A stretch of DNA of 64,000 nucleotides, taken from the NCBI GenBank assembly GCA_964562615.1, contig CAZLUD010000001.1:193072-257071 (forward strand), read 5' to 3'. The DNA comes from an uncultured Candidatus Saccharibacteria bacterium. GTDB lineage: Bacteria; Patescibacteriota; Minisyncoccia; Phycocordibacterales; UBA12088. The notes beneath the pieces were generated by a model, which did no database searches, was not told where the DNA came from, and saw nothing but the letters and a program-made list of their open reading frames with translations. Of this stretch, positions 28,712-49,943 are shown piece after piece (the first letter of the stretch is position 1; each line of letters opens with the position of its first letter). The translations under genes and the position numbers were made by a program.

Positions 28712-29001
28712 TTTTGAATAGGAGTATTTTTTATAAGCAACAATTTTTCTGGTTTTGATAACCTCTTTATATACGCCTCTCGCTTTGATGCGACTGATCT
28801 ATTTTCACATGCTTCAGCATATACAAGCCGTACTACTCCTTTTGCTCTCGTGTACCTCCCCCCTACACCATCTTTATGTTCTTGAAGGCGACGAGCAGTA
28901 TCGGTGGTAATTCCTGTATACAAAGACCCATCCTTACACAAAAGGATATACGCATAAAACATACTCATACGATAAGTATACCCTGTATTATTCCTCTTCA
29001 C
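28708..29001 (-). CDS. GIY-YIG domain protein (UPF0213/YhbQ-like)
   Basis: FYAYILLCKDGSLYTGITTDTARRLQEHK is a GIY-YIG motif. Confidence 0.7.
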   Translation of the reverse strand: MKRNNTGYTYRMSMFYAYILLCKDGSLYTGITTDTARRLQEHKDGVGGRYTRAKGVVRLVYAEACENRSVASKREAYIKRLSKPEKLLLIKNTPIQK

Positions 29002-32000
29002 CGCCTACTGATTCTGTGGGTGTTTCTTCAAGTACCACCACTACTCTTGTACTTGTTGCGGTGTTTCCACTTGGATCACTAGCTACATATAGTATAGAGT
29101 GCGATCCAGCTACTGATGTATCAATAGCAACCGAGGATACTTCGCTGTTGTTGTAGTAGGTGCGGAGTATTGCGACGCCACTATCGTCTATCGCTACAGC
29201 GCCAAGGTCATTGTATGCTTCGCCAACAAAGAGTTCGGCAGGGTTGTTTCCAAAGACAGTAAGCTCTGGTGGGGTGGTGTCAGTATTGGTGGTGTCTTCA
29301 TCTACCGTCGTGTCATCTGTATTCCCTTTTGCAACCTCTGCTTCAAGCAATTTGATACGCGCTTCAAGTGCTTCTATTTTATTATCTTGTACACTAAAGC
29401 GACTCATAACTGTTGTATACAACTCTTGTATAGCCTTTACTACCACCGCACCAAGCTGGTCATACTTGACTGTTAGTGGTTCTCCTTCGGTATCTAGTAC
29501 GATAAGACGAGGATCAATGAGTTCAACTTCTTCAGCAATAAATCCAAGCTGTGCGCCTGGCACACCGATTGATTCATTATAAAGATAAGACACAGGGCGA
29601 AGCGCAAGAACAGTATCAAGGCTGGTAGCGAGTGTTTCTATATCATGCTTAAAGCGATTTGAAGAAACAGTACATGCTGCCCCGACGTTATAAAGTACTT
29701 CATTGCTAGCCGAGAGACACAATGCCCCGGCACCTGTAGAAAGACTTTTTAACGATACCGTACCCTCAACAGAAAGTTTTCGCCATGGAGTGGTGGTGCC
29801 GATGCCGACGTTGCCGGTATTTGTGATCCGCACTCGCTCTGAACCACTCGTGTACAAATTCAGGCCATAATACCCAGAAAGGTGCAGTCCTGGGTTGCCA
29901 AAGTCCCCATTTGCGATGGTCATCCCGTATGCGGCAAGGGTTGAGCCATTCGCACTAAACGTTTGAGAATTGGGAAGATAGCCGATCATGCTGCCATTTG
30001 CAACCGTAAGACCAATATTTCCAGTTACTTCCAACTTGCTCCCTGGATTTGTCGTTCCAATGCCGACGTTGCCCGCATTTATGTACGACGCTGTTCCTCC
30101 GTTCGTACTGAAAAGGATGTCCACGTTTCCTGACGTGTCGCGCATCCGATACCGGCTGTCCCCGCCGCCATCGAACCCGAAATCGTACTTCAGCGTCCCG
30201 CCGCTGTTGTTGATGTACACGGCGTCCGTCCCGCTTGGCGTGATCTCGAGACGAGCACCTGGATTGCTGTCGCCGATGCCGACGTTGCCGTTGAATATTC
30301 CAGTCCCCGCAGTTGTTGTCGCATATCCTGAATCATCAGCAAGTCTGAAATCTATTCCTGCTCCGTTACGCTTGATTGCAGGAAACGCAGATGTCGTTCC
30401 ACCAAACTGGAGTCTACCAAAGTCAGTATTGGCATTGTTAAATAATGTCATTATTCCATCGGTAGCAGTGAAAACAATCTTCGTCCCTGTGGAGCTAGAC
30501 CTAAGTCCCTGCCCGGTAATCACATTAATTCCTGTGGGTTGGAAAGAAATACCATTTGTGCCTTGGACTGAAACCAGAATGACTCCGCTACTGCTATTAC
30601 TCCAAGAAAAACCAGTACTAGGTTGACCTGAAAAAGCCATCGATGGAGATGCGGTTGAACCATTCCCCACATAGAGAGTCGTGGAAGATGCAATACCCTG
30701 CACATCCAGTTTCGACTGGGGATTCGTCGTCCCTATGCCGACGTTGCCGTTGTCATTAACTACAAACCTTGTGACATTAGAGGAGTCTGAAATTGCGAGG
30801 GCTTTCCCTGTGCCAGTTCCTGTACCCTTCACAGAAAGTTTTGCCCATGGTGTCGTCGTCCCAATACCCACAGATCCAGAGTTTGTGATGTGCAAACGTG
30901 TTTGTTCAACACCGCTTGTAAGCGTCTTTAGTGATACAGTACCAAGATTATTACGTCCTGATACAAGACTCAAATCATATCCTACATAGCCATACTGAAT
31001 ATACGCAGGTGCATATCCTGCGCTTCCATGATTATCAAGTATTAATTTAGCTGGGGTTGAGCTAGTACGTTCAATAACAATATCGCCATCTCTAATAGCA
31101 AGCTTTGCATACGGTGAGGTAGTGCCAATACCGACATTCCCATTATCATTGATCACAAACCTTGTGACATTTGACGAGTCAGAAACTGCAAACGCTTTTC
31201 CGGTACCAGTACCACTCCCCTTTATTGAAAGCTTTGCCCATGGGGAGGTAGTGCCGATGCCAATGGAGCCAGTGCCAGTAATACGCATACGCTCAATACC
31301 GGTACCAGTGCCGCCTGTACCAAAAATGATAGGCGCAACCGCCTGTGTAACTATTGCAAGTCCCCCAGTATCTCCCGAGCCAGTTTGCAAGGTACCTGAA
31401 AGAGGAATGTCGAGAAGATTCGTATTTCCCGTTGTTGAGTTGTTATGACTAAGAGCAAAAAATTGAGTAGACGAATTTTCTCCCACCGCTACCAGACGAG
31501 AAAATCCGGAGGAGAGAGTCGATTCGGAACGGATAACAGAATTTGCTGTACTGGAGAAGGTGTGGAGGAGAGTACTTGGACTACTCGTCCCCACCCCCAC
31601 ATTCCCCGTCGCCCTATACACATTGCCTCCAGAAAGCGTCCAGTTCCCCACCGTGGCACCAGCAACAAGCGCACCATTCCAGTAGAGGGAGGAGGCATTG
31701 TTGTATAGGCGGTTGGTGGTAGCAAGAGGAGTGGATGAGGCAAGGAAGAGTGAACCAGTCACTGAGGCATCTCCAGAAACTGAGAGCGTGGTGAAGGGAG
31801 AGGTGGTTCCTAGTCCTAGTCTGTTGTTCGTCTCATCAAAGAAGAAACTCGCATTGTCTTGTGATACCTGTCCTAGGGAGTTAGCAAAGAGGACAGAGCC
31901 GGAGGTAAAGCCAGAGAGCGTGGTGGTACCCACTATAGTGAGGTTCGTGATGGTAGGAGAAGAGAGAGACACAGAAGCAAGAGAGCCACCGGTCACGGTG

Positions 32001-32560
32001 GGGTTTGAGATGGTTGGTGATGGGATAGTGACTCCAGTCGGAAGATTGTCTATCTTCTGGGTGAGTCCCCAGACGGGAGTCGAGGGTGGCTGGTATGAGG
32101 AGTAGGTGCCATAGCCGGTGAAGGTAGTGGCGGTTTGTGTGGGGAGAGTGTTTAGTTTTGTGGTGAGGAGAGCAAGAGATGATTCGAGAAAGGAGATGCG
32201 ATTCAAGAGGTCGGTGTTGTTTGCTTCTATGGTGATGTACTTAGTCACCGGGTCAGTGACACGCTCTATGACTCTCTCCGTGATGATGGTAGAGGTGGCG
32301 GTATCAGTCTCCTCTTGTGGAGGGGTGGTGGGTGTTTCTTCTTGTGTGGGAGGTTGGTATACAACAGCAGTGTGTTGCCCTTCTTTGAGTGATGAGAGGG
32401 TGGTAGATAGGTTGTCGGGAGATGACGATATAAAGGCAAACACGCCGAGTGCCACAGATGCAATTGCCACGAGTAGTGGTGCCATAGATACCTTGAAGTA
32501 TACCGCTTTTTTGGGTGTTTTTGGTGTGGGGTGTGGGGTGTGGGGGTGAAAAATAAGCAA
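28988..32560 (-). CDS. Giant cell-surface protein (1190 aa) with Thr-rich linker, tail-fibre-like internal repeats, a peptidase-S74-type intramolecular chaperone domain, and a DUF5011/Ig-like C-terminus
   Basis: N-terminal signal anchor present. Repeated GNVGIGTTSPWAKLSIKGSGTGTGKAFAVSDSSNVTRFVINDNGNVGIGTT units occur. The C-terminal SSNRFKHDIETL...RPVSYLYNESIGVPGAQLGFIAEEVE...KIEALEARIKLLE resembles the tail-fibre/endosialidase chaperone domain. The end PPELTVFGNNPAELFVGEAYNDLGAVAID...YVASDPSGNTATSTRVVVV fits DUF5011. Confidence 0.75.
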   Translation of the reverse strand: MLIFHPHTPHPTPKTPKKAVYFKVSMAPLLVAIASVALGVFAFISSSPDNLSTTLSSLKEGQHTAVVYQPPTQEETPTTPPQEETDTATSTIITERVIERVTDPVTKYITIEANNTDLLNRISFLESSLALLTTKLNTLPTQTATTFTGYGTYSSYQPPSTPVWGLTQKIDNLPTGVTIPSPTISNPTVTGGSLASVSLSSPTITNLTIVGTTTLSGFTSGSVLFANSLGQVSQDNASFFFDETNNRLGLGTTSPFTTLSVSGDASVTGSLFLASSTPLATTNRLYNNASSLYWNGALVAGATVGNWTLSGGNVYRATGNVGVGTSSPSTLLHTFSSTANSVIRSESTLSSGFSRLVAVGENSSTQFFALSHNNSTTGNTNLLDIPLSGTLQTGSGDTGGLAIVTQAVAPIIFGTGGTGTGIERMRITGTGSIGIGTTSPWAKLSIKGSGTGTGKAFAVSDSSNVTRFVINDNGNVGIGTTSPYAKLAIRDGDIVIERTSSTPAKLILDNHGSAGYAPAYIQYGYVGYDLSLVSGRNNLGTVSLKTLTSGVEQTRLHITNSGSVGIGTTTPWAKLSVKGTGTGTGKALAISDSSNVTRFVVNDNGNVGIGTTNPQSKLDVQGIASSTTLYVGNGSTASPSMAFSGQPSTGFSWSNSSSGVILVSVQGTNGISFQPTGINVITGQGLRSSSTGTKIVFTATDGIMTLFNNANTDFGRLQFGGTTSAFPAIKRNGAGIDFRLADDSGYATTTAGTGIFNGNVGIGDSNPGARLEITPSGTDAVYINNSGGTLKYDFGFDGGGDSRYRMRDTSGNVDILFSTNGGTASYINAGNVGIGTTNPGSKLEVTGNIGLTVANGSMIGYLPNSQTFSANGSTLAAYGMTIANGDFGNPGLHLSGYYGLNLYTSGSERVRITNTGNVGIGTTTPWRKLSVEGTVSLKSLSTGAGALCLSASNEVLYNVGAACTVSSNRFKHDIETLATSLDTVLALRPVSYLYNESIGVPGAQLGFIAEEVELIDPRLIVLDTEGEPLTVKYDQLGAVVVKAIQELYTTVMSRFSVQDNKIEALEARIKLLEAEVAKGNTDDTTVDEDTTNTDTTPPELTVFGNNPAELFVGEAYNDLGAVAIDDSGVAILRTYYNNSEVSSVAIDTSVAGSHSILYVASDPSGNTATSTRVVVVLEETPTESVGGEEE

Positions 32561-32579
32561 AATTTATCCTCCAATTTCC

Positions 32580-33314
32580 TTACCGTCTGTTGTAGGTGCT
32601 TACCTCTTTTGTGGACTCATTGATGAGCTTAAGTACCTCGGGGGTAATTCTTTTTACGACAAAATACTCAGTGTTTGATTCATTATTTTTGCTCATGGTT
32701 ATAGCAAGGTGCACTAATTGCTCTTCACCAAGCGCTACTGGTGCCTCTTCACTATCTTGCGTATAGACACGCCAGGTACCATGTTGAATCTCGCTACCCT
32801 CTCTATAATCGACAAATGTGCTCTGCATAAACTCTCGAACGAGCGTTGGCTCGTCAGCGGATTGCCATCGGTCAACCAGACTCTCTGCTGCAATCTTTAC
32901 AATATCAACAGCATCACCTCCCCCTTCTGCCGCATCACCAAAATTAAATGGTGCCAAATTAGGATCAAATGGTTGTGCGCACAACGTAACGGTGTTTGTA
33001 GATTTGTTGGTAACGGTTACCCCCTCACCTGCAAATACATACGCATACTCAGCATCTTCAAATCTGTATCCATACCCCTCTACTTGTGGGAGTGTTCGTG
33101 TCAAAACACCATCGACAATAACTTCTAGCGATGTGCTTGAGGGAAACTCTGCAATAAAGTAACTGGTATCGTTACATATCATTGATATAGAAATGCGTTG
33201 TGTTTGTGAATCCTCAATCACATTCTCTTGCTCTATGCGGGTGCTATGGATATACGCAACATACCCAACTCCCACCATTACTACTACCAAAAGAGTAAAA
33301 ATTGCCTTATTCAT
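32580..33314 (-). CDS. Secreted/membrane-anchored hypothetical protein
   Basis: N-terminal TM/signal helix. Acidic 244-aa product with no recognisable domain. Confidence 0.45.
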   Translation of the reverse strand: MNKAIFTLLVVVMVGVGYVAYIHSTRIEQENVIEDSQTQRISISMICNDTSYFIAEFPSSTSLEVIVDGVLTRTLPQVEGYGYRFEDAEYAYVFAGEGVTVTNKSTNTVTLCAQPFDPNLAPFNFGDAAEGGGDAVDIVKIAAESLVDRWQSADEPTLVREFMQSTFVDYREGSEIQHGTWRVYTQDSEEAPVALGEEQLVHLAITMSKNNESNTEYFVVKRITPEVLKLINESTKEVSTYNRR

Positions 33315-33389
33315 CTAAGTCAAAATACGTATTACTAATAGTAGCTTTATACAATCATGCCATACGTGCGTGTCAAACAAACCTACGCA

Positions 33390-33974
33390 TTAGAGAAAGC
33401 GAATTGATTCTATAAGAGGAGAAAAATCACGGCGAATATCAGTCTGCTCATCAATAAATTGACCAGTTATAACGTATATCATGCCATTATGCGCAATCAC
33501 TACATTTTCTGATACATACAGACCATCTGCCATATACCGTATCGCACTAGCACCAGCTACCGTGATATCACCACGCTCTCCCTGCAACTGATTGATAGTA
33601 CTGTACTGGGGATTTTTTTCTGCCCATGCAAGAGGCGAAAGATTTTCGCTATTAGTGTAGAGTGCAACAGATATGACTGGCGAGGCTTCTCCTCCTAGTG
33701 GCGGAGCCTCGGTAGCATCCTCTGATGGGATAAGTACAATAGTTTTTATTGGCTCTTCATCTGTAGCAACTGGTACCCTCTCTTCTGTTACATACCCCTC
33801 AATGCCTGTTTTATAGTCAAAGACTATTCCTCCACGAGAGTCCTGATACGTTGCAATCATCGCCTCATTGAGACTTGCAGCATCTTTTTTGTCTTCACTT
33901 TTATCAGCAAAAATTACGTAGTACCCAAGCAGTACCACGATACTACTAGTCACAATTGCAAATAATACTTTCAT
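33390..33974 (-). CDS. Secreted hypothetical protein
   Basis: N-terminal signal/TM helix. No recognisable domain. Confidence 0.45.
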   Translation of the reverse strand: MKVLFAIVTSSIVVLLGYYVIFADKSEDKKDAASLNEAMIATYQDSRGGIVFDYKTGIEGYVTEERVPVATDEEPIKTIVLIPSEDATEAPPLGGEASPVISVALYTNSENLSPLAWAEKNPQYSTINQLQGERGDITVAGASAIRYMADGLYVSENVVIAHNGMIYVITGQFIDEQTDIRRDFSPLIESIRFL

Positions 33975-33988
33975 ATACGTAGTATATC

Positions 33989-34381
33989 TTATTTGTGTGT
34001 GCCACCACTTGCGAGCGTGGCGATAACTTTTTTTATTTGATCACTATATGCCGCTTTGGCTTTTGTTGATGTGAGTGACCCTACCACATCTCTTCGAGCG
34101 TCTGGTGATAAGTTTTTCCACGCTGTCTTTGCTTTTTGATTTTTGTTTAACGCGGTATACAAATCGATAGGCACCACCGCATAGCAACATGGTCGGCGTT
34201 TTCCTGAAAGAAGCTTGTCGCCCATTTGTTCTATCCGGCGGTTACGAGTCTCTTGTTGCTTTGCTGACTCTATCCACTGTATAAAGTCATACTGCGCTAT
34301 TGGTGTTAATGTCTTCCATATCTGAGACACCGCCTTATTGCTATCCAATGATCGCTGTATATCTATAGCTATCTTTTTCAT
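33989..34381 (-). CDS. YdeI/OmdA-like (DUF1801-related) small protein
   Basis: YDFIQWIESAKQQETRNRRIEQMGDKLLSGKRRP fits the OmdA C-terminal motif. Confidence 0.5.
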   Translation of the reverse strand: MKKIAIDIQRSLDSNKAVSQIWKTLTPIAQYDFIQWIESAKQQETRNRRIEQMGDKLLSGKRRPCCYAVVPIDLYTALNKNQKAKTAWKNLSPDARRDVVGSLTSTKAKAAYSDQIKKVIATLASGGTHK

Positions 34382-34391
34382 ATTGTTGATA

Positions 34392-34850
34392 TCACTTTTT
34401 GCCTCCTAATCGTTGTATGTAGGTAAAGTGTTTTTTTGTAACGGGCATTACAGAGAGTCGAAGGCCGGGTTCACGTAGTTGTATCCCCTCAAGAGCTGGG
34501 TCAGATTTTATTATGGCAAGAGACACTGGCTTGTTGCAGTGCTCTACATAGGCAATGTCAGGACAATACCATAGTGGTTTTTCTTTTGTTGCCTTTGGGT
34601 CAAAGTAGTGATTGTTGTTATCAAACTGTGACGGATCAGGATATGCTGCTTTTTGTACTTGTCCTATTCCATACACTCCTTTATGCGCGGTACTTGAATG
34701 GTAGATAAGCACACCATCCCCCACCTCCATCGCGCGCAAAAAATTGCGCGCTTGGTAGTTACGCACCCCTTCCCATGGAGTCTTTTTATCGCGCGCAAGA
34801 TCATCTATCGAATATGCTTCCGGCTCTGTTTTTACAATCCAGTAGTTCAT
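34392..34850 (-). CDS. EVE (PUA-like) domain protein
   Basis: N-terminus NYWIVKTEPEAYSIDDL...WEGVRNYQARNFLRAMEVGDGVLIYHS is the EVE signature. Confidence 0.75.
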   Translation of the reverse strand: MNYWIVKTEPEAYSIDDLARDKKTPWEGVRNYQARNFLRAMEVGDGVLIYHSSTAHKGVYGIGQVQKAAYPDPSQFDNNNHYFDPKATKEKPLWYCPDIAYVEHCNKPVSLAIIKSDPALEGIQLREPGLRLSVMPVTKKHFTYIQRLGGKK

Positions 34851-34890
34851 GAGGTTGTTCCTAAATGTATGGATACTTGTACAAGGCTAC

Positions 34891-35373
34891 TTATGCAGTA
34901 CCTTTTCGTGCCGCCTCAATGGTGGCGATATCAATTTTTTTCATTGTCATCATTGCATCAAAGACTCGTTTTGTTTCATCCCCACCAGCGGATAGCCCCG
35001 AGAGTAGCGCGCGCGGCGCTATCTGCCACGATACTCCCCACGCATCTTTGCACCATCCACACTCACTCTCTTTTCCTCCATTACCTACTATCGCATTCCA
35101 ATATCTATCAGTTTCTTCTTGATCATCGGTAGCAATTTGAAAAGAGAATGCTTCGCTTTGTGGAAACATAGGACCACCATTAAGCCCCATGCATGGGATA
35201 CCGAGTACAGAAAACTCAACCGTGAGTGCTTCACCTTTTACTCCACCCGGAAAATCTGAAGGTGCATAAAACACCTCGCCCACCGCACTATCAGGAAATG
35301 TTGCTGCATAAAATGTTGCCGCCTCAAGCGCCCCCTTCTCAAACCATAGGCACACGGTATTTTTTGATTGCAT
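34891..35373 (-). CDS. VOC-superfamily PhnB-like / 3-demethylubiquinone-9 3-methyltransferase-domain protein
   Basis: Contains CLWFEKGALEAATFY...CGWCKDAWGVSWQI. Confidence 0.65.
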   Translation of the reverse strand: MQSKNTVCLWFEKGALEAATFYAATFPDSAVGEVFYAPSDFPGGVKGEALTVEFSVLGIPCMGLNGGPMFPQSEAFSFQIATDDQEETDRYWNAIVGNGGKESECGWCKDAWGVSWQIAPRALLSGLSAGGDETKRVFDAMMTMKKIDIATIEAARKGTA

Positions 35374-35503
35374 ATGTTGTTGTAATTTTTAATACGATAT
35401 ATCCCAATCTCTGTATGTATAAACTACTCACTCACGAGTGTACCATGTACACAGAGCCCCGACACGTACGTGTCGGGGCTCTTCTCTTCACTTGCGCGTC
35501 ATC

Positions 35504-36384
35504 TTAGCATAACAACGCTCTCTTGCTTTTCATACTTTCTACAATGTGGGTAGGCGCCCATGGTCTGCGCAACTGCAGTGCACCAAAGCTCACTGCATGA
35601 GCTCCCATCTTAAAAAGCGTACCAACATCTGCCTCACTCATAGCACTTGGTGCTATGACCGGAAGGGATCCTTGCGCTACAAGCTCCCCCACTGCCATCC
35701 AATTTCTATGCTGTGCTGGTGCACCCGATACTCCACCACCCCCACCACCAACACGCATCTCTAGTGCAGCAAGCGGTGTACGACTATGTGGAAATACCAT
35801 ATTCCACGGTACGCTGTTAAGTGATATCGCCCCAACAACACCACGCAACGCTGCAGCAATACTTATACACCCCTGGTCAACTGAAACTTTAATGATAATT
35901 GGGTGTTGTGATGCCACCTTCACCGCTCTCACCGAAGAAAGAATGTTTTGTATAGATTCTCTCGCCTCCCCACATTTGGACAAGAAAGATTGACCTCAAT
36001 GCCAACAAGAGGAATCCTGTTCAGCATTCTAGCCATCTCAACCAATTCCTCTTCTTTTCCATGTATTGAGACAACGATATTGTTGTCTCTGAAATTGATT
36101 GTTGGTGCAATCTTATTTAGCCAATAGATAATACCGGGATTGGTTAGCCCAATCTTATTCACCATACCGCCATCAATAAAGCGGACACTCCCTAAAGGAT
36201 TCCACCAGGTAAAGTTTCCTTTCAAGGGTTTAAGTGTCAACGTCTTTGTGACAATGGTGAATAGGTTTGGCTTTATGGCCCCACACCAAACAAGCGGCCG
36301 CTGGAAAAACCATCCATCTCCATACCCAAACGAGCTACTAGAAAGGACATGCTCAAAAGAGTGCCCGTTTGAAAGTGTAATCAT
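35504..36384 (-). pseudogene. pyrD: Dihydroorotate dehydrogenase-like gene split across two overlapping frames (35929..36384 and 35504..35983), frameshifted
   Basis: The upstream ORF has GLTNPGIIYWLN...VNLSCPNVG (DHODH/DPD family). The downstream ORF continues with KVSVDQ...GAISLNSV...GAHAVSFGALQL. The two overlap by 55 nt in different frames. This is either a genuine disabling mutation or an assembly error. Confidence 0.5.
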
Positions 36385-36467
36385 GACACACTCCTCTTCT
36401 GGGTTACCACATCTGCATCCGAAACAAGCCTACCTGCGCCACGCCATTCGTCAATATCTATTTATGT

Positions 36468-36719
36468 TTACTTCTTTTTCCACCGTGGGGCGAAGCCAGC
36501 TATAAACGCAAAAAAGTGCGCTTTGATTCTGCTTTCTCCCCTCGCAACAATAGCCTTAACCATTTCCTTTTTAAACTCATTTAGATCAGTCCCTTCGTAG
36601 CAGAGCTTTCCATTGTTAAAACAATAACTACAATACTGCACTGACTCGCGCTTGTCACCGAGTGGATCTTTGTTAAACGGCATCAAACAACTTTCACACA
36701 TTGCATTATCTGTTTTCAT
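36468..36719 (-). CDS. Small zinc-ribbon domain protein
   Basis: Two cysteine pairs CESC and CSYC are spaced ~20 aa apart. Confidence 0.5.
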   Translation of the reverse strand: MKTDNAMCESCLMPFNKDPLGDKRESVQYCSYCFNNGKLCYEGTDLNEFKKEMVKAIVARGESRIKAHFFAFIAGFAPRWKKK

Positions 36720-36795
36720 GTTTTTATATCCTCATTATACACAAAACTCGTAGCGGGTAGATGATGCCCTTTTCAACTAACACACTTAAGCAAGA

Positions 36796-37188
36796 TTATT
36801 TTTTATCCTTCATAATAGCAACGCTCTTCTTAACCAATTTTTTTATTAGACCTAATGGAAGCTTGTCTTTTTCAGAAAAACTGATGATTGATTTTGTTGT
36901 TTTGTACTTTGATACTTCTTTCGCATAATCTTCTAATGCCGGTGGTCTCACATGCAATCTTACGAATGGCTTTTTATAGCTAAACCAGGCAAACATGCCA
37001 TCATAATCGTATCCACCATTGTATGAGTATCCGGGCATATCAAAATAATCTGTCCTTTCTTGTGCGGATGGTGCAGCTTTTTTAATTTCAGTCCGTATGG
37101 CATTCAGATGTAATTGCGCTTCTTTTGGGCACAATGCAATATACTCCTCAACTGTTTTTTCCTTTTTGTTTGGTTTAATACGTAACAT
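36796..37188 (-). CDS. DUF1801 (YdhG-like) domain protein
   Basis: Size and the pattern APSAQERTDYFDMPGYSYNG...FAWFSYKKPFVRLHV are typical of DUF1801. Confidence 0.55.
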   Translation of the reverse strand: MLRIKPNKKEKTVEEYIALCPKEAQLHLNAIRTEIKKAAPSAQERTDYFDMPGYSYNGGYDYDGMFAWFSYKKPFVRLHVRPPALEDYAKEVSKYKTTKSIISFSEKDKLPLGLIKKLVKKSVAIMKDKK

Positions 37189-37227
37189 ATCTTTATGTTA
37201 CTAGGAGCCGAGCATACATCAAACTGG

Positions 37228-37250
37228 CTGCCAGACTTGGATTCTAACTA
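37228..37250. repeat. Degenerate direct repeat of the tRNA-Gln 3' end (putative distal att-like boundary of an AT-rich island)
   Basis: gctgccagacttggattctaacta matches gctgccggacttggactcgaacca (41617..41640) at 20 of 24 positions. This is my own manual alignment. Confidence 0.35.
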
Positions 37251-39035
37251 TCTCGGTCTAGAACCAGAATATGCCTTAAAATATAGGTTCGCGTCTAGAG
37301 AAGTCCATATCTCTTCTGGTTTTTCCTCATCAATAAAAATTCTCATCCACAACTCTAGACTCAAAAGAATCCATATAATTTCTGAATTATCCTTTTCTTG
37401 TCTTAGATGCTCACATATACACTCACGTATATTGGAATAATTTAAGTAATCTCTTTCTATTCTTGGATGCATGAAAAACTGAAGATACCTCCCTAGTCCC
37501 TGATCGTCCCTTAACCATTCAGAAATGGGTAAACCAAACCCGCATTTTTTACGAAAAACAACATTGGCTGGTAAATATTTACTTGCGAGATTTTTTAAAA
37601 TAATCTTACTTTCTATATCGCTGACCTTTTGTGAATCTAACAATCTAAGAGCAAAATTGAGCAAACGAGGATCTAAAAATGGAAAACGATTTTCGACCGT
37701 AGACGCCATACCCATCTTGTCTTGTCTTAAGAGTAGAGAAGGGAGGAATGTCTGTAGATCATAATTCCCTAATTTCTGCATACTACTTTTTCCTTTCACA
37801 CCATCAACGATTAATTCTCTATGCTCAATTTTGGTCTTATCTATCTTAAAGAATCGTTGCACATCTACTTCAGTAGAAAAACTATTAGAATAAAATATTG
37901 ATTTTCTGTCATTTTTTGGCAAAATCTTTCTATATCTATTGTAACCTCCAAATAACTCATCCGCTCCCTCACCACTCAACAAGACTTTCACGTAACCTGA
38001 AGCAGTGTTACTTAACAGCATTAACGGCACTGTGTTAGGGTATGCAATTGGTTCATCCAGATGATAGGTGGCAATAGGGTAATTTTTACAAAAATAATTT
38101 TGATCAAAGACAATCTCGTGGTGTGTAGTGCCTAACAATTTTGAAACTTCTCTTGAGTATTCAAACTCATTCCATTTTGAATCATTGAGTCCAATGGAAA
38201 AAGAATGAATATCTTTTTGATTTAAAACTTTTTTTGCCAGTGAACTGATTAGACTTGAATCTACTCCACCACTAAGCTGAAATCCAACTGGAACATCTGA
38301 TAAAACATGCTCTGAAACACTCTTTGTTAACAATTCTTCAATGTCGGACTCAGCAACATCGACATACTCAGAGTACCTACTCTGAACCAGAGAATCGCTC
38401 TCAAGGTCATATTCAACTATTGCCGATGGCGCTAATTTATATACACTTTTTATCATAGTTTCTGAGCCTGAGATGACTCTAAATACACAGTACTCAAATA
38501 GATGTTCTTCATTTAACAAAAAATCGAATCCTGGTAAATGTCTGAAGGTTTTTAACTCTGATGACCAGGCGAACCAGTCTTCAGTATTTAAATAATAGAG
38601 TGGCTTAATACCAAACCTGTCAACGGAAAGAGTTACCTTATTAAATGTCGGTTCATAGAAACTAACTGCAAACATTCCTCTAATTAATTCAAAAACTTTT
38701 TTATCATGCTTTTTATAGGCCAATAGCAGAGTTTCTGTATCGGAATCAGTCTTATACATAAGTGGATTCTCCCTCATCTCAAGATGATTATATACTTCTC
38801 CATTATAAGAAATTACCAAGTTACCATCTTCGGTCGCCAGTGGCTGATTGGCTTTTTCTGACAAATCAAGTATTGCCAATCGATTGTGCCCAATAACAAC
38901 TCCATTGTTTTCATATATTCCAGATGCATCTCGTCCTCTATATTTTATTTCGTCCAACATCCTATTTGCGAGAGTTTTTCTCTCATCCACCGATAATTGC
39001 TTTTTCTTATCGACTAATCCTATTATTCCGCACAT
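37248..39035 (-). CDS. Asparagine synthase (glutamine-hydrolysing) family protein
   Basis: N-terminus MCGIIGL is the class-II amidotransferase Cys2. The PP-loop SGGVDSS lies in the synthetase domain. Codon usage is AT-rich. Confidence 0.85.
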   Translation of the reverse strand: MCGIIGLVDKKKQLSVDERKTLANRMLDEIKYRGRDASGIYENNGVVIGHNRLAILDLSEKANQPLATEDGNLVISYNGEVYNHLEMRENPLMYKTDSDTETLLLAYKKHDKKVFELIRGMFAVSFYEPTFNKVTLSVDRFGIKPLYYLNTEDWFAWSSELKTFRHLPGFDFLLNEEHLFEYCVFRVISGSETMIKSVYKLAPSAIVEYDLESDSLVQSRYSEYVDVAESDIEELLTKSVSEHVLSDVPVGFQLSGGVDSSLISSLAKKVLNQKDIHSFSIGLNDSKWNEFEYSREVSKLLGTTHHEIVFDQNYFCKNYPIATYHLDEPIAYPNTVPLMLLSNTASGYVKVLLSGEGADELFGGYNRYRKILPKNDRKSIFYSNSFSTEVDVQRFFKIDKTKIEHRELIVDGVKGKSSMQKLGNYDLQTFLPSLLLRQDKMGMASTVENRFPFLDPRLLNFALRLLDSQKVSDIESKIILKNLASKYLPANVVFRKKCGFGLPISEWLRDDQGLGRYLQFFMHPRIERDYLNYSNIRECICEHLRQEKDNSEIIWILLSLELWMRIFIDEEKPEEIWTSLDANLYFKAYSGSRPR

Positions 39036-40056
39036 ATTTTTTGTTGATATAATTAGAAACCGTTACAGCAATTTCCCTTTCCAGATCCGGTGATTCTTGA
39101 ACTTTTTCCCATTCGCCGTTTAAAGATTGCTTATAGTAAAATTTTGATTTTTCAATCGTGTATTGCCCCAAACAAAGGCATTGAAACTCAAACAAGAAGA
39201 ACTCGCCATCCTTATGTCCGATATCAAGAGACACAAATGGAGTATTAAGTTTCTTGTAAACAACCTCTGCATAATCAAGAAGCCCAATCGGAAGCTCTGC
39301 GTTAAAGTCTAAATTACCACTACCACTTGCGGTAAAGTTATTCTTTCTATTCTTACGAAATACTACATAGTACTTTTCTCCGTAAGCCAGTATTCTAAAG
39401 TCACCATCCAAGGCGCTGATAAAGTTCTGGACAATAAACTTCTTTCTATTATTAGACATTGGAGTAAATGGTTTCCCTGTCTTTATTTTTGAGAGAAACA
39501 GCTTTAAATTATCGAAGGTAAATGATCTTGATATCTTGTACGGCACAATCTTTTTATCCTGGTATATCTTAAGAAGACCGACATCTCGGCTTCTAGTGCC
39601 CGAACCAGGCTTTATAACAAAAATATCATTATCATTTGAATAACCAGACTGCACATATTCCTCATATGTACCAAATGATTTTGAATGAATGTTCTGTATC
39701 TCTCGTATTCCTAATACATCTCTCAACATCTCCATAAAAACCTTGTTGTGGTGAGCTCTAAAATATTCAAAATCTGGAATCAAGCGTGCTCCTTGTGTTT
39801 TCAATCCAAGTAAAATGTCTTCAATATAATCTTTGTAGGAAAGTCCCGGATCTTCTGACGATTGGTAGAGAACCCATTTGTTCTTGTAATCCTCTGCCCT
39901 CAAATCTATTTCGTAAAAGTGTTTTACAATCAGATTAAAACCATGGTCACAGAAATAATTTTTTAATTTATCGACATCAACAGAAGCACCTCTATATCTG
40001 GTAGAGAAGTAGAACTGATTTCTATAATCCAGAAGAATTATGATGTCACTATTCAT
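39007..40056 (-). CDS. ATP-grasp domain protein (RimK/TupA-like)
   Basis: Contains VIKPGSGTRSRDVGLL and FIVQNFISALDGDFRILAYGEKYYVVFRKNR, followed by FVSLDIGHKDGEFFLFEFQ. The start overlaps the asnB-like stop. Confidence 0.55.
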   Translation of the reverse strand: MNSDIIILLDYRNQFYFSTRYRGASVDVDKLKNYFCDHGFNLIVKHFYEIDLRAEDYKNKWVLYQSSEDPGLSYKDYIEDILLGLKTQGARLIPDFEYFRAHHNKVFMEMLRDVLGIREIQNIHSKSFGTYEEYVQSGYSNDNDIFVIKPGSGTRSRDVGLLKIYQDKKIVPYKISRSFTFDNLKLFLSKIKTGKPFTPMSNNRKKFIVQNFISALDGDFRILAYGEKYYVVFRKNRKNNFTASGSGNLDFNAELPIGLLDYAEVVYKKLNTPFVSLDIGHKDGEFFLFEFQCLCLGQYTIEKSKFYYKQSLNGEWEKVQESPDLEREIAVTVSNYINKKYVRNNRISR

Positions 40057-40651
40057 GTATTAGACCGCTCGTAATGGCGTTTTCAAGAAATTTCAAATCC
40101 CTTAGGATATTGAATCCCGTGTTATAAAAAGTGACTTTCCCATCCTTCAAATCTACCTCCTGCTTTCTGAAAATATCCAAGGCGGTTTTTACATCTACCC
40201 ATTTCGTATACATACCGATATTAGACTCATCATCAGTATATGACACCACCCCCTTCTCTCCTACAACAGCTGCAACATAACAAAAGTTGATGCAGTGTTT
40301 TTTATCTCTTGGCCTATAGTCATCAACAATCCCAACCTCGGACTTCAGCTCAACATTGCACCCCGTTTCCTCAAGACACTCTCTAATTACCCCTTGACCA
40401 ATATCTTCGCCATCATCTATACCTCCGCCAGGCAACTGGAGAAAATCATTTTGTTTATTACCAACTAATCCAATTTTCCTCTCACTGTCTACAATGATTG
40501 CTTTTCCAGTATTTCGATCTTCATACTCGATACTTGTATCTTCTGCCATCTCTGGAAAAACATCTTTTTGATATATGGTTGTAATTTTATTCATAAGTTT
40601 ATAAATTCTGTTGAATTTCAACATAATAGCGTATATATTTACAAAAATCAA
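40049..40651 (-). CDS. NUDIX hydrolase
   Basis: GGGIDDGEDIGQGVIRECLEETGCNV is a Nudix box (GX5EX7REUXEEXGU). Confidence 0.75.
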   Translation of the reverse strand: MIFVNIYAIMLKFNRIYKLMNKITTIYQKDVFPEMAEDTSIEYEDRNTGKAIIVDSERKIGLVGNKQNDFLQLPGGGIDDGEDIGQGVIRECLEETGCNVELKSEVGIVDDYRPRDKKHCINFCYVAAVVGEKGVVSYTDDESNIGMYTKWVDVKTALDIFRKQEVDLKDGKVTFYNTGFNILRDLKFLENAITSGLIHE

Positions 40652-40696
40652 AAAGTGATGTATTCTCTTTTCTGACCAAAAACGAAGGAAGCTCTA

Positions 40697-41365
40697 ATGA
40701 ATCCGCAAAAGATCATTGTAATGCGGCACGCAGAGTCACAGGAGGACGTCGACAAGACAGTATATGCCCACACAGCAGACTTGGACGTCGCCCTGAGTCA
40801 GAGAGGAGAAAAACAATCCATCGACGTTAGCCACACACTATCCAATATTCTTGGAAAAGGGAGTGTCCATTTCTACATATCTCCGGGACTGAGATTGCGT
40901 CAGACCTATAATCTGATGACGTCTCGCTTTCCTGAATACTTGCACCACAGCTTTTCTGTGGAGACACTTATCCTCAAACAATACTGGGGTGATGTGACTG
41001 TCGAGAATCGCCGCGAAATTGAAATCGCCCGATACAAGGAAGGTGTCCTGGTCTACCGTTTTCCAAACGGTGAAAGCGGTCCACAGCTCGTGGAACGTTT
41101 CAGACTCTTTGCAAGCAACCTTCGTGGTGAATTTGCAAAGAAGGACTTTCCGGAAAATATCGTGGTCCTCACACACGGGTTTGAAATGAGAGTCTTTCTC
41201 ATGGTTTGGTTTGGCTGGAGTGTAGAATACTTCGAAAGTTTGGCCAACCCGAGAAACTGTGAGATGATCACGCTTCATCTCAAACCTGATGGATCCTACT
41301 CAACGGATCGAGAAATGAGGATTTACGATCCATCGGGCAATCCAGCTCACGTGGCCAGAAAATAA
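40697..41365 (+). CDS. Histidine phosphatase superfamily (phosphoglycerate-mutase-like) protein
   Basis: The RHG motif sits in IIVMRHAESQED. This is the only plus-strand gene in the region. Confidence 0.7.
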   Translation: MNPQKIIVMRHAESQEDVDKTVYAHTADLDVALSQRGEKQSIDVSHTLSNILGKGSVHFYISPGLRLRQTYNLMTSRFPEYLHHSFSVETLILKQYWGDVTVENRREIEIARYKEGVLVYRFPNGESGPQLVERFRLFASNLRGEFAKKDFPENIVVLTHGFEMRVFLMVWFGWSVEYFESLANPRNCEMITLHLKPDGSYSTDREMRIYDPSGNPAHVARK

Positions 41366-41368
41366 GAT

Positions 41369-41412
41369 CAACCGGATGGGAGGTAGTTTGCCTCCCATCC
41401 GGTTAATTTTTA
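41369..41412 (+). terminator. Rho-independent terminator
   Basis: The sequence aaccggatgggagg-tagtttg-cctcccatccggtt is a 14-bp stem followed by aatttttat. Confidence 0.65.
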
Positions 41413-41617
41413 TAATAACAAAATGAATAACATGAAAAATACAAAACATTTTATTTTAATATTTTTCCTTTACTCGACCCAACCTGGATCTCGAACTAAA
41501 GCCGTGGCTTAAAATATAGAAACTAAATTTAACCAGTCAAGGATGCTTTTTCGAATTTTCCAAATGATACTTATTCTTCCTCACGTGTCGCGATCGCTAG
41601 GTACTAAAAACTAAGCT

Positions 41618-41688
41618 GCTGCCGGACTTGGACTCGAACCAAGATACACGCCTCCAGAGGGCGTAGTCCTACCATTAGACGATCCGGC
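41618..41688 (-). tRNA. tRNA-Gln (anticodon CUG)
   Basis: Reverse complement UGCCGGA...CUCUGGA...CUUGGUUCGAGUCCAAG UCCGGCA G. U1:A72 with G73 is typical of bacterial tRNA-Gln. The anticodon loop is cuCUGga. CCA is not encoded. Confidence 0.8.
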
Positions 41689-41795
41689 AAGGATACAATG
41701 CAAGCAGTTTTAGCTAGCACTATGCGCTATTTGCGCACATGGACTATAGCATATTGCTCATGTGGTCGCATCCCTTATTAAGGGGCGTGCACGCC

Positions 41796-46689: not shown

Positions 46690-47289
46690 CTACGCCATAT
46701 CACGTAATTTTTCAATTTCACCAAGTAAGTGGTTCCTCAATCTTGAGTTGAGAAAATATACAGTAAGAACGCCATTCTGTGATTTATTTCTATACGTTCC
46801 CTTTTTATTTGATTTAGAAACTATTGTCTTATAAAACTGAGTCTTGGAAACATTAAGTTTATTTCTCCAAAATGCTTCTACTTGTGAGACTACCACATCA
46901 TTATGAACTTGAAGTGAAAATCGTAAGTCCCTTCGATTAATTACATATCTTTTTTCCAGAAAGTGGATGAAGCAATTTAAAAGATCTGGGTCACTATTAC
47001 CAAGCCTAATTTCACTTTTGTTCTTTTTATTTCCTTCCCCCCAGTACAAGCCTAACCCCAACCCAAGTAATAATATTTCTTTTTTATTTAATGGTGTAGT
47101 AACTGAAAATGGATTACCGTTAGGATTTTTCTTGGAATAAACTGCTTCTGAAATACTCCTTTTTGTTATTCCGTTCTTTTTCAACCAATAATTTACCTTA
47201 GATATTGAACAGCCAAGTATTGTAGCAATCTCTGAGGCTGATTTCTTTTCAAAAGAATATTGTTTGATCAACACAAATTTTGCGATCAT
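46690..47289 (-). CDS. LAGLIDADG-like homing-endonuclease-like protein with N-terminal HTH
   Basis: HTH-like SASEIATILGCSISKVNYWLKKNGI. LAGLIDADG-like block LLLGLGLGLYWGEGNKKN, followed by LLNCFIHFLEKRYVI. AT-rich. Lies between two tRNA-Thr genes, 58 nt downstream of the intron-containing one. The assignment is from motif reading only. Confidence 0.4.
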   Translation of the reverse strand: MIAKFVLIKQYSFEKKSASEIATILGCSISKVNYWLKKNGITKRSISEAVYSKKNPNGNPFSVTTPLNKKEILLLGLGLGLYWGEGNKKNKSEIRLGNSDPDLLNCFIHFLEKRYVINRRDLRFSLQVHNDVVVSQVEAFWRNKLNVSKTQFYKTIVSKSNKKGTYRNKSQNGVLTVYFLNSRLRNHLLGEIEKLRDMA

Positions 47290-47347
47290 ACACTAAGTAT
47301 AAATCGCCGTTGTTATTTGTTTAATGGCAAATGTCACCACTACATTG

Positions 47348-47624
47348 AGCCGATGTCCGGGATTGAACCGGAGACCTCCCCCTTCGTGTACACCTCATTT
47401 TCTTCCCTTTGCTTTATATGAGGACTAGACTGTATCTTTCGCATATTTTACTACATGAGCAAAACGTAGCGACCCTTGTCAGTCGTTCGGGCCTTTAAAA
47501 ATAGGCCACGGTCTGGACCAGTGCTGGCCTTTAACCGTAATTCAGGTTCAACTAGTAGTTTCCTACGTAGCGGGCAATCACACGGATTACCATGGGGGTG
47601 CTCTACCAACTGAGCTACATCGGC
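47348..47624 (-). tRNA. tRNA-Thr (anticodon GGU by my reading) interrupted by a 204-nt group I intron in the anticodon loop
   Basis: Exon 1 (47589..47624) reads GCCGAUG UA GCUC AGUUGGUA GAGC A CCCCC AUGGU. Exon 2 (47348..47384) reads AA GGGGG AGGUC UCCGG UUCAAUC CCGGA CAUCGGC U. Joined exons give a perfect 73-nt cloverleaf with a 7-bp acceptor, D, anticodon and T arms. Confidence 0.6.
47385..47588 (-). ncRNA. Group I (self-splicing-type) intron inserted after anticodon nt 36 of tRNA-Thr(GGU)
   Basis: Exon nt -1 is U and the intron's last nt is G. IGS GAUUGCC (intron nt 10-16) pairs with exon GGU plus intron AAUC to form P1 with U•G at the splice site. P2 is GUAG-GAAA-CUAC. P7 is GACUG/CAGUC within an S-like element AAGAUACAGUCUAGUCC. 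P8 is CUAC...GUAG. P9 is CCUCAU/AUGAGG just before the 3' G. Structure was assigned manually. Confidence 0.55.
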
Positions 47625-49128: not shown

Positions 49129-49484
49129 TTGCGCGAGTGATGGGACTGACCCGCTTTTTCTAAGCCCTATGGGGCTAAGAACGCTGGTCGCGCCTCGCCG
49201 ACAAGCACTCGCCTTGCTCGTCTTGTATACCGGCTCCGGCGTTCAAGTCCCATCTCATTCGTCGCAAATGCAACAACAGCAAAGCATTCGCTTTGCTGTT
49301 GGCATATTGCGCGAGTGATGGGACTGACCCGCTTTTTCTAAGCCCTATGGGGCTAAGAACGCTGGTCGCGCCTCGCCGACAAGCACTCGCCTTGCTCGTC
49401 TTGTATACCGGCTCCGGCGTTCAAGTCCCATCTCATTCGTCGCAAATGCAACAACAGCAAAGCATTCGCTTTGCTGTTGGCATA
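49129..49484. repeat. Two tandem 178-bp direct repeats immediately downstream of tRNA-Asp, each beginning with a copy of the tRNA 3'-terminal ~19 nt
   Basis: Units 49129..49306 and 49307..49484 are essentially identical. Each starts ttgcgcgagtgatgggact, which equals the tRNA-Asp 3' end at 49485..49503. Each unit contains 8-bp and 12-bp perfect hairpins (ctaagccc/gggcttag and caacagcaaagc/gctttgctgttg). ORFs 48971..49318 and 49293..49496 are translations of this repeat. Confidence 0.85.
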
Positions 49485-49487
49485 TTG

Positions 49488-49561
49488 CGCGAGTGATGGG
49501 ACTTGAACCCACGACCTCTCCCGTGACAGGGGAGCGCTCTAACCAGCTGAGCTACACCCGC
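49488..49561 (-). tRNA. tRNA-Asp (anticodon GUC)
   Basis: Reverse complement GCGGGUG UA GCUC AGCUGGUUA GAGC G CUCCC cuGUCac GGGAG AGGUC GUGGG UUCAAGU CCCAU CACUCGC G. G73 discriminator. Confidence 0.85.
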
Positions 49562-49813: not shown

Positions 49814-49920
49814 GCAGTATATAACTGTGGGTAATAGTTTGGGTTACAAAAATGCTCTATTCCCCCACAAACAGTGCGAAAGCACTGTTCTCCACCAACA
49901 CGGCGTTCACTTTGTTCACT

Positions 49921-49943
49921 TGTGTCGGCGGGAGGGATCGAAT
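49921..49943. repeat. Partial duplicate (22/23 nt) of the tRNA-Met 3' end (T-loop to acceptor), 134 bp downstream of the tRNA
   Basis: tgtgtcggcgggagggatcgaa is identical to 50075..50096. The T-stem partner is missing, so this is not a functional tRNA. A 9-bp inverted repeat ggatcgaa/ttcgatcc lies nearby. Confidence 0.6.

Follow-up and report, generated by a model that had tools for sequence, protein, structure and literature searches.

Introduction

Pairs of an ATP-grasp ligase and an AsnB-type enzyme that amidates the ligated product are known from the synthesis of N-acetylglutaminylglutamine amide (NAGGN), by AsnO and Ngg, and from the D-Asp ligase and AsnH of Lactococcus and Enterococcus. 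An ATP-grasp ligase is also central to the glucuronamide module of the Campylobacter jejuni HS:2 capsule, where the amidoligase Cj1438C, which is fused to a glycosyltransferase, amidates glucuronate with serinol-phosphate or ethanolamine-phosphate, and the phosphatase Cj1435 then takes off the phosphate (PMC11800379). Here we describe a gene cassette from an uncultured Candidatus Saccharibacteria bacterium (GenBank assembly GCA_964562615.1), which lies beside tRNA-Gln(CUG) in a 64,000-nucleotide (nt) stretch of contig CAZLUD010000001.1 (positions 193,072 to 257,071 of the forward strand; this whole stretch is called the window, and positions are given in its coordinates) and encodes an AsnB-type amidotransferase, an ATP-grasp ligase, a NUDIX hydrolase and a histidine phosphatase. 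The cassette is a discrete, relocating unit of Patescibacteria, found in seven other contexts, all of them different. Its ATP-grasp ligase is unclassified, while tRNA-associated islets and ATP-grasp/amidotransferase decoration pathways are of known kinds. As a genomic island it is small, decayed and fairly ordinary, and the cassette itself, a common, relocating and uncharacterised module for which glycan decoration is our best guess, is the more interesting subject. The explanation that we consider best overall, namely a transferred cassette with a function on glycan carboxylates, is in our judgement evenly poised between right and wrong.

Compared with the C. jejuni module, the cassette likewise combines an ATP-grasp ligase and a phosphatase with a UDP-sugar-dehydrogenase(-like) protein, which here is the product of a fifth gene with Cj1441 as its top structural match, and members of its ATP-grasp family are likewise fused to glycosyltransferases. 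However, the ATP-grasp ligase is not TupA-like by sequence, with GT4 in place of GT2 as the partner in fusions; the phosphatase is a histidine phosphatase and not of the HAD type; the NUDIX and AsnB-type enzymes are extra, and there are no pyridoxal phosphate enzymes; and the dehydrogenase-like protein has 232 amino acids (aa), compared with the 390-aa UDP-glucose dehydrogenases, and is deleted in the window. The cassette thus does not belong to the C. jejuni system.

The four enzymes of the cassette

An earlier reading of this DNA, made from the letters alone (the sequence-only reading), had called asnB-like, ATP-grasp, NUDIX and histidine-phosphatase genes here, and these calls hold, that of the ATP-grasp gene by fold only. 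The features of the cassette are as follows.

37248 to 39035, minus strand: AsnB-type glutamine-dependent amidotransferase, 595 aa (Pfam Asn_synthase, 2e-77, plus GATase_6/7)
39007 to 40056, minus strand: ATP-grasp ligase of an unclassified family, 349 aa (by fold only)
40049 to 40594, minus strand: NUDIX hydrolase, likely 181 aa from the ATG at 40594 (Pfam NUDIX, 6e-12)
40595 to 40696, no strand assigned: intergenic region between the NUDIX and phosphatase genes, with promoter-like hexamers on both strands (consensus matches only)
40697 to 41365, plus strand: histidine-phosphatase superfamily, branch 1, 222 aa (Pfam His_Phos_1, 1e-15)
41367 to 41407, no strand assigned: strong bidirectional terminator hairpin 3' of the phosphatase gene, kept in homologous cassettes
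41432 to 41449, plus strand: 5' remnant of the fifth gene, ATGAAAAATACAAAACAT, encoding MKNTKH (from the cassette-border alignment)

The NUDIX, ATP-grasp and AsnB-like genes form a translationally coupled operon with overlaps of 29 nt between the AsnB-like and ATP-grasp genes and 8 nt between the ATP-grasp and NUDIX genes (13 nt in cassettes elsewhere), and the phosphatase gene is divergent from it. The catalytic motifs are kept in all four enzymes. The AsnB-like protein has an N-terminal MCGI, with the Ntn cysteine, and a PP-loop synthetase domain, and it passes the asparagine synthase model TIGR01536 (407.6 bits against a cutoff of 267.1), with the hydroxyamidotransferase 7ylz (5e-44) and E. 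coli AsnB (4e-43) as PDB sequence matches and TIGR03108, an exopolysaccharide-associated amidotransferase, as second-best NCBIfam match. In the NCBIfam scan it stayed below the equivalog cutoffs of the lasso cyclase (NF033535, 175.7 against 525), the NAGGN amidotransferase (TIGR03104, 294.1 against 570.1, and with no GNAT-ATP-grasp partner) and the PEP-CTERM amidotransferase. The NUDIX protein scored 46.1 bits on PF00293 (cutoff 21.1) and its Nudix box, GGGIDDGEDIGQGVIRECLEETGC in translation, is intact (GX5EX7REUXEEXGU); its longest open reading frame (ORF) begins at a TTG at 40651, while 181-aa homologues align from 40594, and its nearest PDB entries are DIPP and Ap4A hydrolases (3e-6). The phosphatase, with 58.4 bits on His_Phos_1 (cutoff 21.7), carries the RHAES motif (VMRHAES) and reached no specific equivalog in the NCBIfam scan. 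Anti-phage defence was considered and rejected, as the PADLOC defence models gave nothing beyond a weak generic NUDIX match.

The 349-aa protein matched neither Pfam nor NCBIfam models, even at E≤10, and had no PDB sequence match, and single-sequence and profile searches of the ATP-grasp protein against Pfam, NCBIfam and PDB returned nothing significant, the best being BacD (E 0.13). Using Foldseek, an AlphaFold2 model built on 44 homologues (predicted local distance difference test score, pLDDT, 91.4) gave 365 PDB matches at E≤1e-3, with ATP-grasp enzymes in all of the top 50 places. The amino-acid ligases ArgX, LysX and RimK were the best of these (E 2e-13 to 1e-9; template modelling (TM) scores 0.5-0.69), followed by DcsG and PsnB (down to 1e-8), and K149, D278, E290 and Q292 are invariant in the family. 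By its confident model the protein has the three-domain ATP-grasp fold, with the conserved Lys and the Mg-binding acidic and amide residues, and its family is an orphan of the superfamily; the ATP-grasp label of the sequence-only reading was thus right, for a family outside the named Pfam families. That reading had also proposed a choice between TupA-like, RimK and MdnC subfamilies by hidden Markov model (HMM), and this could not be made, with no significant match to the TupA-like PF14305 or the RimK PF08443: when the 44 family members were compared with the ATP-grasp Pfam HMMs, only sub-threshold matches were found, to GSH-S_ATP (7 members), YheCD (6), TTL (6), ATPgrasp_ST (6), TupA (1) and RimK (1). 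Hence, although RimK, LysX and ArgX are the best structural matches, the protein differs from them in lacking a significant match to PF08443 or any other ATP-grasp Pfam family and in having no LysW or S6-type partner.

More than 500 homologues of the ATP-grasp protein were found in a collection of 5.8 billion proteins, and those with a named source were from Paceibacterota (Nomurabacteria and Zambryskibacteria), while an exhaustive profile search gave 1143 representatives at 50% identity with E≤1e-3 and 407 with E≤1e-30. JGI annotation describes relatives as glutathione synthase/RimK-type. Several relatives are NUDIX-ATP-grasp fusions of ~520 aa, and two others, P0218 and P0229, are fusions of a GT4 glycosyltransferase with the ATP-grasp protein, the locus of P0218 also holding PMT-type transferases, three GT4 genes and a Bac_transf initiating transferase. 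On L174, an 81-kb IMG/VR viral contig, a 41%-identical ATP-grasp gene ends an operon of methyltransferase, GT4, DUF362 and ATP-grasp genes (7593-11023), adjoined by ribonucleotide reductase and a Dam-type methylase.

In cassettes L168, L169, L170, L175 and L177 an intact fifth gene of 232 aa follows the phosphatase gene; in the window its first six codons are kept, and similarity to the other cassettes stops at 41451-41464. The intact protein had no Pfam match, but its model (pLDDT 95.3) placed Cj1441 and other UDP-glucose dehydrogenases at the top, with TM scores of 0.74-0.76 on the query (TMq). As the target dehydrogenases have 377-456 aa, cover is partial (TM score on the target, TMt, ~0.46) and the C-terminal part is missing. 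A GGHC motif is invariant in the 232-aa protein, and some of its relatives are named UDP-ManNAcA dehydrogenase by JGI. On this modelling, the fifth gene seems to encode a short protein like a UDP-sugar 6-dehydrogenase, which the window has lost down to six codons.

The cassette in other genomes

The full cassette order was found on contigs L008/L009, L011/L012, L166/L167, L168, L169/L170 and L175-L177, with ATP-grasp homologues at 91, 82, 79, 78, 71 and 50% identity, all of which have the phosphatase gene divergent from NUDIX, ATP-grasp and AsnB genes, while on L010 (56% identity) there is an ATP-grasp gene with a convergent AsnB gene only. The most distant full cassette is that of L011, at 50% ATP-grasp identity. 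All seven of these contexts differ from that of the window and, strain duplicates aside, from each other: the cassette adjoins type IV pilus genes on L008, RuvX and a tRNA cluster on L011, a periplasmic binding protein and a restriction-modification system on L166, tRNA-Gln(UUG) on L168, an IS200-type transposase and ribosomal genes on L169, and an acetyltransferase and a histidine kinase on L175, and the neighbours on L010 are GH8, cellulose-synthase-like GT2, PMT_2, GH6 and GH113 genes. The gene block is therefore conserved across relatives, as the sequence-only reading had asked of its synteny, but its neighbourhood is not.

At the nucleotide level, the cassettes of the window and of closer relatives are 74-88% identical, and in five unrelated contexts this similarity is restricted to window positions 37252/37294 to 41451/41464. 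The highest value is for L168, at 88%, compared with ~82% between the window core and its nearest relative. Of core genes, cassette-bearing contigs shared with the window T2SSE, T2SSF and PCRF alone, possibly paralogues. A Ser_hydrolase gene lies near the cassette in two contexts, but the two are only 26% identical and we regard this as coincidence.

A possible role in glycan decoration

The four enzymes probably act together, because their genes overlap and NUDIX-ATP-grasp fusions exist, and we propose that they would act jointly on a nucleotide-sugar or glycan carboxylate. In this scheme the dehydrogenase-like protein, where present, would make a uronic acid, and the ATP-grasp ligase would activate a carboxylate as an acyl-phosphate and join it to an amine, for example an amino acid or a phosphorylated amino alcohol, to give an amide. 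The AsnB-type enzyme would convert a carboxylate to a primary carboxamide with glutamine, and the histidine phosphatase and NUDIX hydrolase would remove a phosphate or nucleotide handle. Sugar-acid amidation in the decoration of surface glycans, by analogy with the C. jejuni glucuronamide module, may thus be the purpose of the pathway, an assignment that we put forward tentatively and with the balance tipping slightly towards doubt. The link to glycans is drawn because of the GT4 fusions, the glycan loci (P0218, L010 and L174) and the UDP-sugar-dehydrogenase-like companion, and through the same three lines of evidence the surface-polysaccharide modification suggested by the sequence-only reading has gained support.

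Several points weigh against this assignment. We infer the function purely from fusions, neighbourhoods and analogy, no glycosyltransferase lies beside the cassette in the window, and the dehydrogenase-like gene has been lost there. The ATP-grasp protein is unlike the TupA-like family of Cj1438C, which was matched by one of the 44 family members (E = 0.074), and the phosphatase belongs to a different superfamily, that of histidine phosphatases and not HAD. Likewise, the C. jejuni model has no role for a NUDIX or AsnB-type enzyme.

A small-peptide product, either a NAGGN-like amidated dipeptide osmolyte or a D-Asp/iso-Asn side chain of peptidoglycan, with the NUDIX hydrolase and phosphatase acting on a nucleotide-linked precursor, is an unlikely alternative that nevertheless accounts for part of the evidence: the best structural neighbours of the ATP-grasp protein (ArgX, LysX, RimK, DcsG and BacD) are amino-acid ligases, the pairing of ATP-grasp and AsnB-type enzymes follows the logic of the NAGGN and D-Asp systems, the AsnB-like protein does score 294 bits on TIGR03104, and UDP-linked peptidoglycan precursors would suit the NUDIX partner. 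However, that score is far under the cutoff of 570, there is no GNAT domain as in Ngg, and the context is glycan-related, with fusions and neighbourhoods that feature glycosyltransferases and not mur or fem genes and with a companion gene that is UDP-sugar-dehydrogenase-like. Graspetide or lasso biosynthesis, which the sequence-only reading had also suggested, would make the locus a cluster for a ribosomally synthesised and post-translationally modified peptide (RiPP), in which the ATP-grasp or AsnB-like enzyme cyclises a ribosomal precursor. We find this scarcely credible. The graspetide ligase PsnB is among the structural matches (E ~1e-9) and the AsnB-like protein partially matches the lasso cyclase model, but ArgX, LysX and RimK outrank PsnB, the lasso score of 175.7 compares with a cutoff of 525, the N-terminal Cys glutaminase is kept, and there is neither a B-type protease nor a RiPP recognition element. 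A search for a small precursor-peptide ORF nearby, which the same reading had advised, found none that is conserved, and there is no room for one, as the genes overlap or are separated by ~100 bp and the cassette is bordered by the ends of genes. NUDIX hydrolases and histidine phosphatases are often solitary, and with an AsnB-like protein that passes the general model TIGR01536 the four genes could be read as unrelated housekeeping functions side by side (an asparagine synthetase, a house-cleaning NUDIX, a phosphatase and an orphan ligase); such a chance assembly is very improbable given that order, orientation and overlaps are conserved down to 50% identity and that NUDIX and ATP-grasp are fused in several relatives. 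Of these readings, joint action on glycan carboxylates is the one we prefer.

The genomes of Saccharibacteria and Paceibacteria are tiny and their cells are found attached to other microbes, and because of this a conserved, exchanged multi-enzyme module likely matters for their lifestyle. Surface glycans of such episymbionts plausibly mediate attachment to the host cell, and decoration of these glycans, if true, would be a testable handle on how episymbionts build their cell surface. The ATP-grasp family is common (~400 to 1100 representatives at 50% identity), lies outside Pfam and is uncharacterised, and no description of an ATP-grasp/NUDIX/AsnB cassette was found in the open-access literature searched. 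It is conceivable, though we consider it doubtful, that these genes constitute an undescribed and widespread pathway of Patescibacteria, in which a new ATP-grasp family, a NUDIX hydrolase, an AsnB-type enzyme, a histidine phosphatase and a miniature UDP-sugar dehydrogenase would place amide decorations on uronic-acid residues of surface glycans, and which would be exchanged between Saccharibacteria and Paceibacteria. The cassette also shows small functional modules moving between such genomes without recognisable mobility genes.

A repeat of the tRNA-Gln 3' end behind the cassette

The cassette lies between tRNA-Gln(CUG) and a degenerate copy of the 3' end of this tRNA, with the following features.

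37224 to 37250, minus strand: degenerate direct copy of the tRNA-Gln 3' end, reading TAGTTAGAATCCAAGTCTGGCAGC followed by CAG on the tRNA strand
41452 to 41617, no strand assigned: 166-bp spacer between cassette and tRNA, lineage-specific and without significant similarity to tRNA or other loci
41618 to 41641, minus strand: 3'-terminal 24 nt of tRNA-Gln, the proximal copy of the att-like core
41618 to 41689, minus strand: tRNA-Gln(CUG) (ARAGORN; Rfam tRNA model, 56.6 bits), with CCA not encoded

ARAGORN and Rfam bear out the earlier claim that the segment ends at tRNA-Gln(CUG), the 3' end of which, at 41618, points to lower coordinates and faces the cassette, whose start is 167 bp away. The 20/24 match to the tRNA 3' end at the far edge was also found again, in direct orientation at 37227-37250, one base from the coordinate given before. 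The next-best match to the 24-mer on both strands of the window was 16/24, and among 300 first-order Markov random windows the top score was 19/24, reached once, with 20/24 in none; because of these values the repeat is real and not due to chance, and the match is significant against a random background, where the sequence-only reading had named a shuffled one. The copy continues as ...GGCAGCCAG and thus has the CCA that is encoded by the tRNA-Gln of the nearest relative (contig L013, see below) and is absent from that of the window, the two tRNAs being otherwise identical. The first triplet of the copy is the stop codon of the AsnB-like gene, cassette homology runs out 1-2 nt from the start of the copy, and the copy is unchanged in strain contigs L001-L005. 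A second tRNA-like fragment at ~41466-41495 was dropped as not significant (local score 11 against a shuffle mean of 8.2, p~0.05).

Copies of tRNA 3' ends lie downstream of three of the five annotated tRNAs of the window. A 19-nt sequence across the 3' end of tRNA-Asp (TTGCGCGAGTGATGGGACT) occurs three times at 178-bp spacing (49129-49503) and heads two perfectly identical 178-bp tandem units just downstream of this tRNA (49129-49306 and 49307-49484), and a 26-nt copy of the 3' end of tRNA-Met (50076-50150) lies 154 bp downstream of it, at 49920-49945, with 96% identity. Such scars are therefore common in the window.

Base composition and codon usage

The window has a low-GC zone at ~36460-40700, with a GC content of ~0.35 compared with a typical 0.42-0.46, and its borders differ from those of the repeat-bounded segment (37227-41617). 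The zone takes in a DUF1801 gene (GC 0.35) and a Zn-ribbon gene (GC 0.41), both to the left of the repeat, and leaves out the histidine-phosphatase gene, whose GC content is 0.47 and whose GC content at third codon positions (GC3) of 0.516 is the maximum of the window (mean of window genes 0.373, standard deviation (sd) 0.05). This gene is also the strongest outlier of the window in synonymous codon usage, with a bias towards GC (z = -4.8). The AsnB-like, ATP-grasp and NUDIX genes (hereafter the trio) have GC3 values of 0.30-0.35, within ~1.5 sd, and mild synonymous-usage z values of -0.9 to -1.9. Most of the deficit of these genes falls on GC1 and GC2, the first and second codon positions, with FYMINK residues (Phe, Tyr, Met, Ile, Asn and Lys) at 0.31-0.39 compared with 0.262 +/- 0.034 in the window and GARP residues (Gly, Ala, Arg and Pro) at 0.17-0.18 compared with 0.242 +/- 0.031, and amino-acid composition is the main source of the trio's low GC. 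All four cassette genes are thus compositional outliers, in two opposite directions. The AT-richer codon usage that had been claimed for 37248-41365 stands weakly for the trio but does not extend to the GC-rich phosphatase gene or fit the borders of the zone, and quantitatively the composition is not uniform, yet its borders do not delimit an island.

Similar patterns were found elsewhere. In the distant cassette L011 (flank GC 0.47-0.53) the trio is again low in GC and the phosphatase gene GC-rich, and the paired ATP-grasp and AsnB genes of L010 likewise have low GC, so low GC is a property of the cassette and not a mark of recent arrival. Across cassettes the trio stays at a GC of 0.31-0.41 while host flanks range from 0.36 to 0.53, and in GC-richer hosts, down to cassettes of 50% identity, the trio has a GC3 that is 1.5-3 sd below that of flanking genes and the phosphatase gene is host-like or higher. 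In hosts across the whole range of flank GC (0.36 to 0.53) the phosphatase gene consistently lies ~10 GC points above the divergent trio, also at 50% identity.

Origin of the cassette

Using a tyrosyl-tRNA synthetase (TyrRS) scan, the nearest GTDB genome was identified as the uncultured Candidatus Saccharibacteria metagenome-assembled genome GCA_964409035.1. Its contig 2 (L013) is collinear with window 52980-41614 at ~82% nucleotide identity, with compared core proteins 88-99% identical, and the alignment stops 4 nt beyond the 3' end of tRNA-Gln. Contig 1 of this genome, collinear with window 15482-29045, breaks off within the gene of a repetitive surface protein; as collinearity ends at both points, the variable region is 29045-41614, ~12.5 kb, and the cassette is its tRNA-proximal part. 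Behind the same tRNA-Gln, L013 carries a different block (10707-20528) with DsbA/DsbB, PAP2, a CsoR-type repressor, a copper P-type ATPase and a cupredoxin, the first 3-4 kb of which have a GC content of 0.34-0.38. As another accessory block lies at this position in the relative, the 3' side of tRNA-Gln is, in this lineage, a hot spot of variable DNA.

We propose that the cassette would have been gained by horizontal transfer, most likely carried by a larger element that had inserted itself into the 3' end of tRNA-Gln, after which the integrase and the remaining DNA of the element would have been lost, with the displaced tRNA end left as a scar. The deletion of the fifth gene to six codons fits such erosion. 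That the repeat marks the integration that brought the cassette, within a larger and since-eroded element, is a reading that we favour, if by a limited degree. In its support, synteny with L013 breaks at the tRNA end and the repeat is significant, correctly oriented and provided with the ancestral CCA; the 91%-identical cassette of L168 also lies downstream of a tRNA-Gln, with anticodon UUG; and the cassette is 88% identical to that of another host, above the ~82% core identity to the nearest relative. As in integrase-mediated tRNA islands, the segment stands beside a tRNA 3' end with a direct repeat at its far border, its cargo is of atypical composition, and this cargo is absent at the syntenic site of a close relative. 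It differs from them in its lack of an integrase, in a repeat that is degenerate (20/24), in composition borders that lie off the repeats, in its very small size (4.4 kb) and in that no empty site was seen.

The evidence against integration is also considerable. No integrase or recombinase was found in a Pfam scan of ORFs of at least 100 aa in 24.3-42.3 kb, in agreement with the sequence-only reading, which had seen none. No empty site was found in any relative; L013 has other DNA at this position and its left flank is on another contig. Comparison with relatives, which had been proposed as a presence or absence check, did show that L013 has no cassette behind its identical tRNA-Gln, where other genes extend over ~10 kb or more. 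The region that differs from the relative is ~12.5 kb, far larger than the 4.4-kb island as first drawn. Cassette copies elsewhere have no flanking tRNA fragments, and the tRNA-Ser that neighbours the cassette on L011 is wrongly oriented. Unalignable intergenic DNA at 75-88% identity could suffice to place the borders of cassette homology at gene ends. Low GC, as a long-standing trait of the operon, says little on the time of arrival here.

Many of these observations could also be explained by an operon that has long been resident, inherited vertically, in a region next to the tRNA that is prone to rearrangement, with intrinsic AT-richness and with the tRNA-end copy as the scar of an unrelated element or a partial tRNA duplication. 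Under this explanation one would expect what is seen in the trio, whose GC3 is within ~1.5 sd and whose bias is mostly in amino-acid composition, the recurrence of a low-GC trio with a GC-rich phosphatase gene in L011 at 50% protein identity, the lack of mobility genes, the frequency of cargo-free tRNA 3'-end copies in the window (tRNA-Asp and tRNA-Met) and a region of difference far larger than the cassette. We nevertheless consider it rather unlikely, as the seven other contexts are all different, the cassette is closer to that of L168 (88%) than the core is to the closest relative (~82%), which has no cassette at the site, the trio holds a GC content of 0.31-0.41 despite host flanks of 0.36-0.53, and cassette homology stops 1-2 nt from the start of the repeat. 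Arrival by integration at tRNA-Gln is therefore the origin that we prefer. The old tRNA-targeted insertion of the sequence-only reading is thus plausible, strengthened by the synteny break, the oriented repeat and the relocating block, and weakened by the composition borders and the missing empty site.

Flanking genes and neighbouring tRNAs

To the left of the repeat, three further features fall at or within the edge of the low-GC zone.

36459 to 36460, no strand assigned: strain-variable junction, left edge of the low-GC zone
36468 to 36719, minus strand: Zn_ribbon_2 gene (Pfam; GC 0.41), outside the repeat and not in cassettes elsewhere
36796 to 37188, minus strand: DUF1801 gene (Pfam; GC 0.35), outside the repeat and not in cassettes elsewhere

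Strains L001, L002 and L004 have a 663-bp insertion with a Ser_hydrolase gene at 36459/36460, and leftwards of this point identity to other strains falls from 99.5-99.8% to 96.7-97.8%, which suggests that it may be a recombination boundary. Examination of 68 loci with DUF1801 homologues (JGI metagenomes, 44-68% identical) showed no cassette and no tRNA-Gln junction, and is uninformative on an empty site. Further left, pyrD (dihydroorotate dehydrogenase; 35504-36384, minus strand) consists of two overlapping ORFs of 151 and 159 aa with an apparent frameshift; strain contig L002 has the gene in one piece (292 aa), and the split is shared by L003, which does not differ from the window (100% identity). 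At 28988-32560 (minus strand) lies a surface-type protein of 1190 aa with a Peptidase_S74 chaperone and Ig-like domains and with internal repeats at 129-393-nt spacings; the contig of the relative breaks inside its counterpart, and similarity is at the level of the repeats only.

On the other side of tRNA-Gln, tRNA-Thr(GGT) (47347-47624, minus strand) contains a 204-nt insert directly 3' of the anticodon (47385-47588). Its two exons match the uninterrupted L013 tRNA at 100% identity, and ARAGORN recognised the spliced form as tRNA-Thr(ggt). As in group I introns, U is the last nucleotide of the 5' exon and G that of the insert, whose size is near that of the smallest known introns of this group. 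No Rfam match was found even at E≤1. Between tRNA-Thr(GGT) and tRNA-Thr(CGT) there is also a 199-aa ORF (46690-47289, minus strand; GC 0.32) with weak helix-turn-helix matches only, in which the stretch LLGLGLGLYWGEG may be LAGLIDADG-like. This ORF is missing from L001 and L013, where the two tRNA-Thr genes lie 11-40 bp apart.

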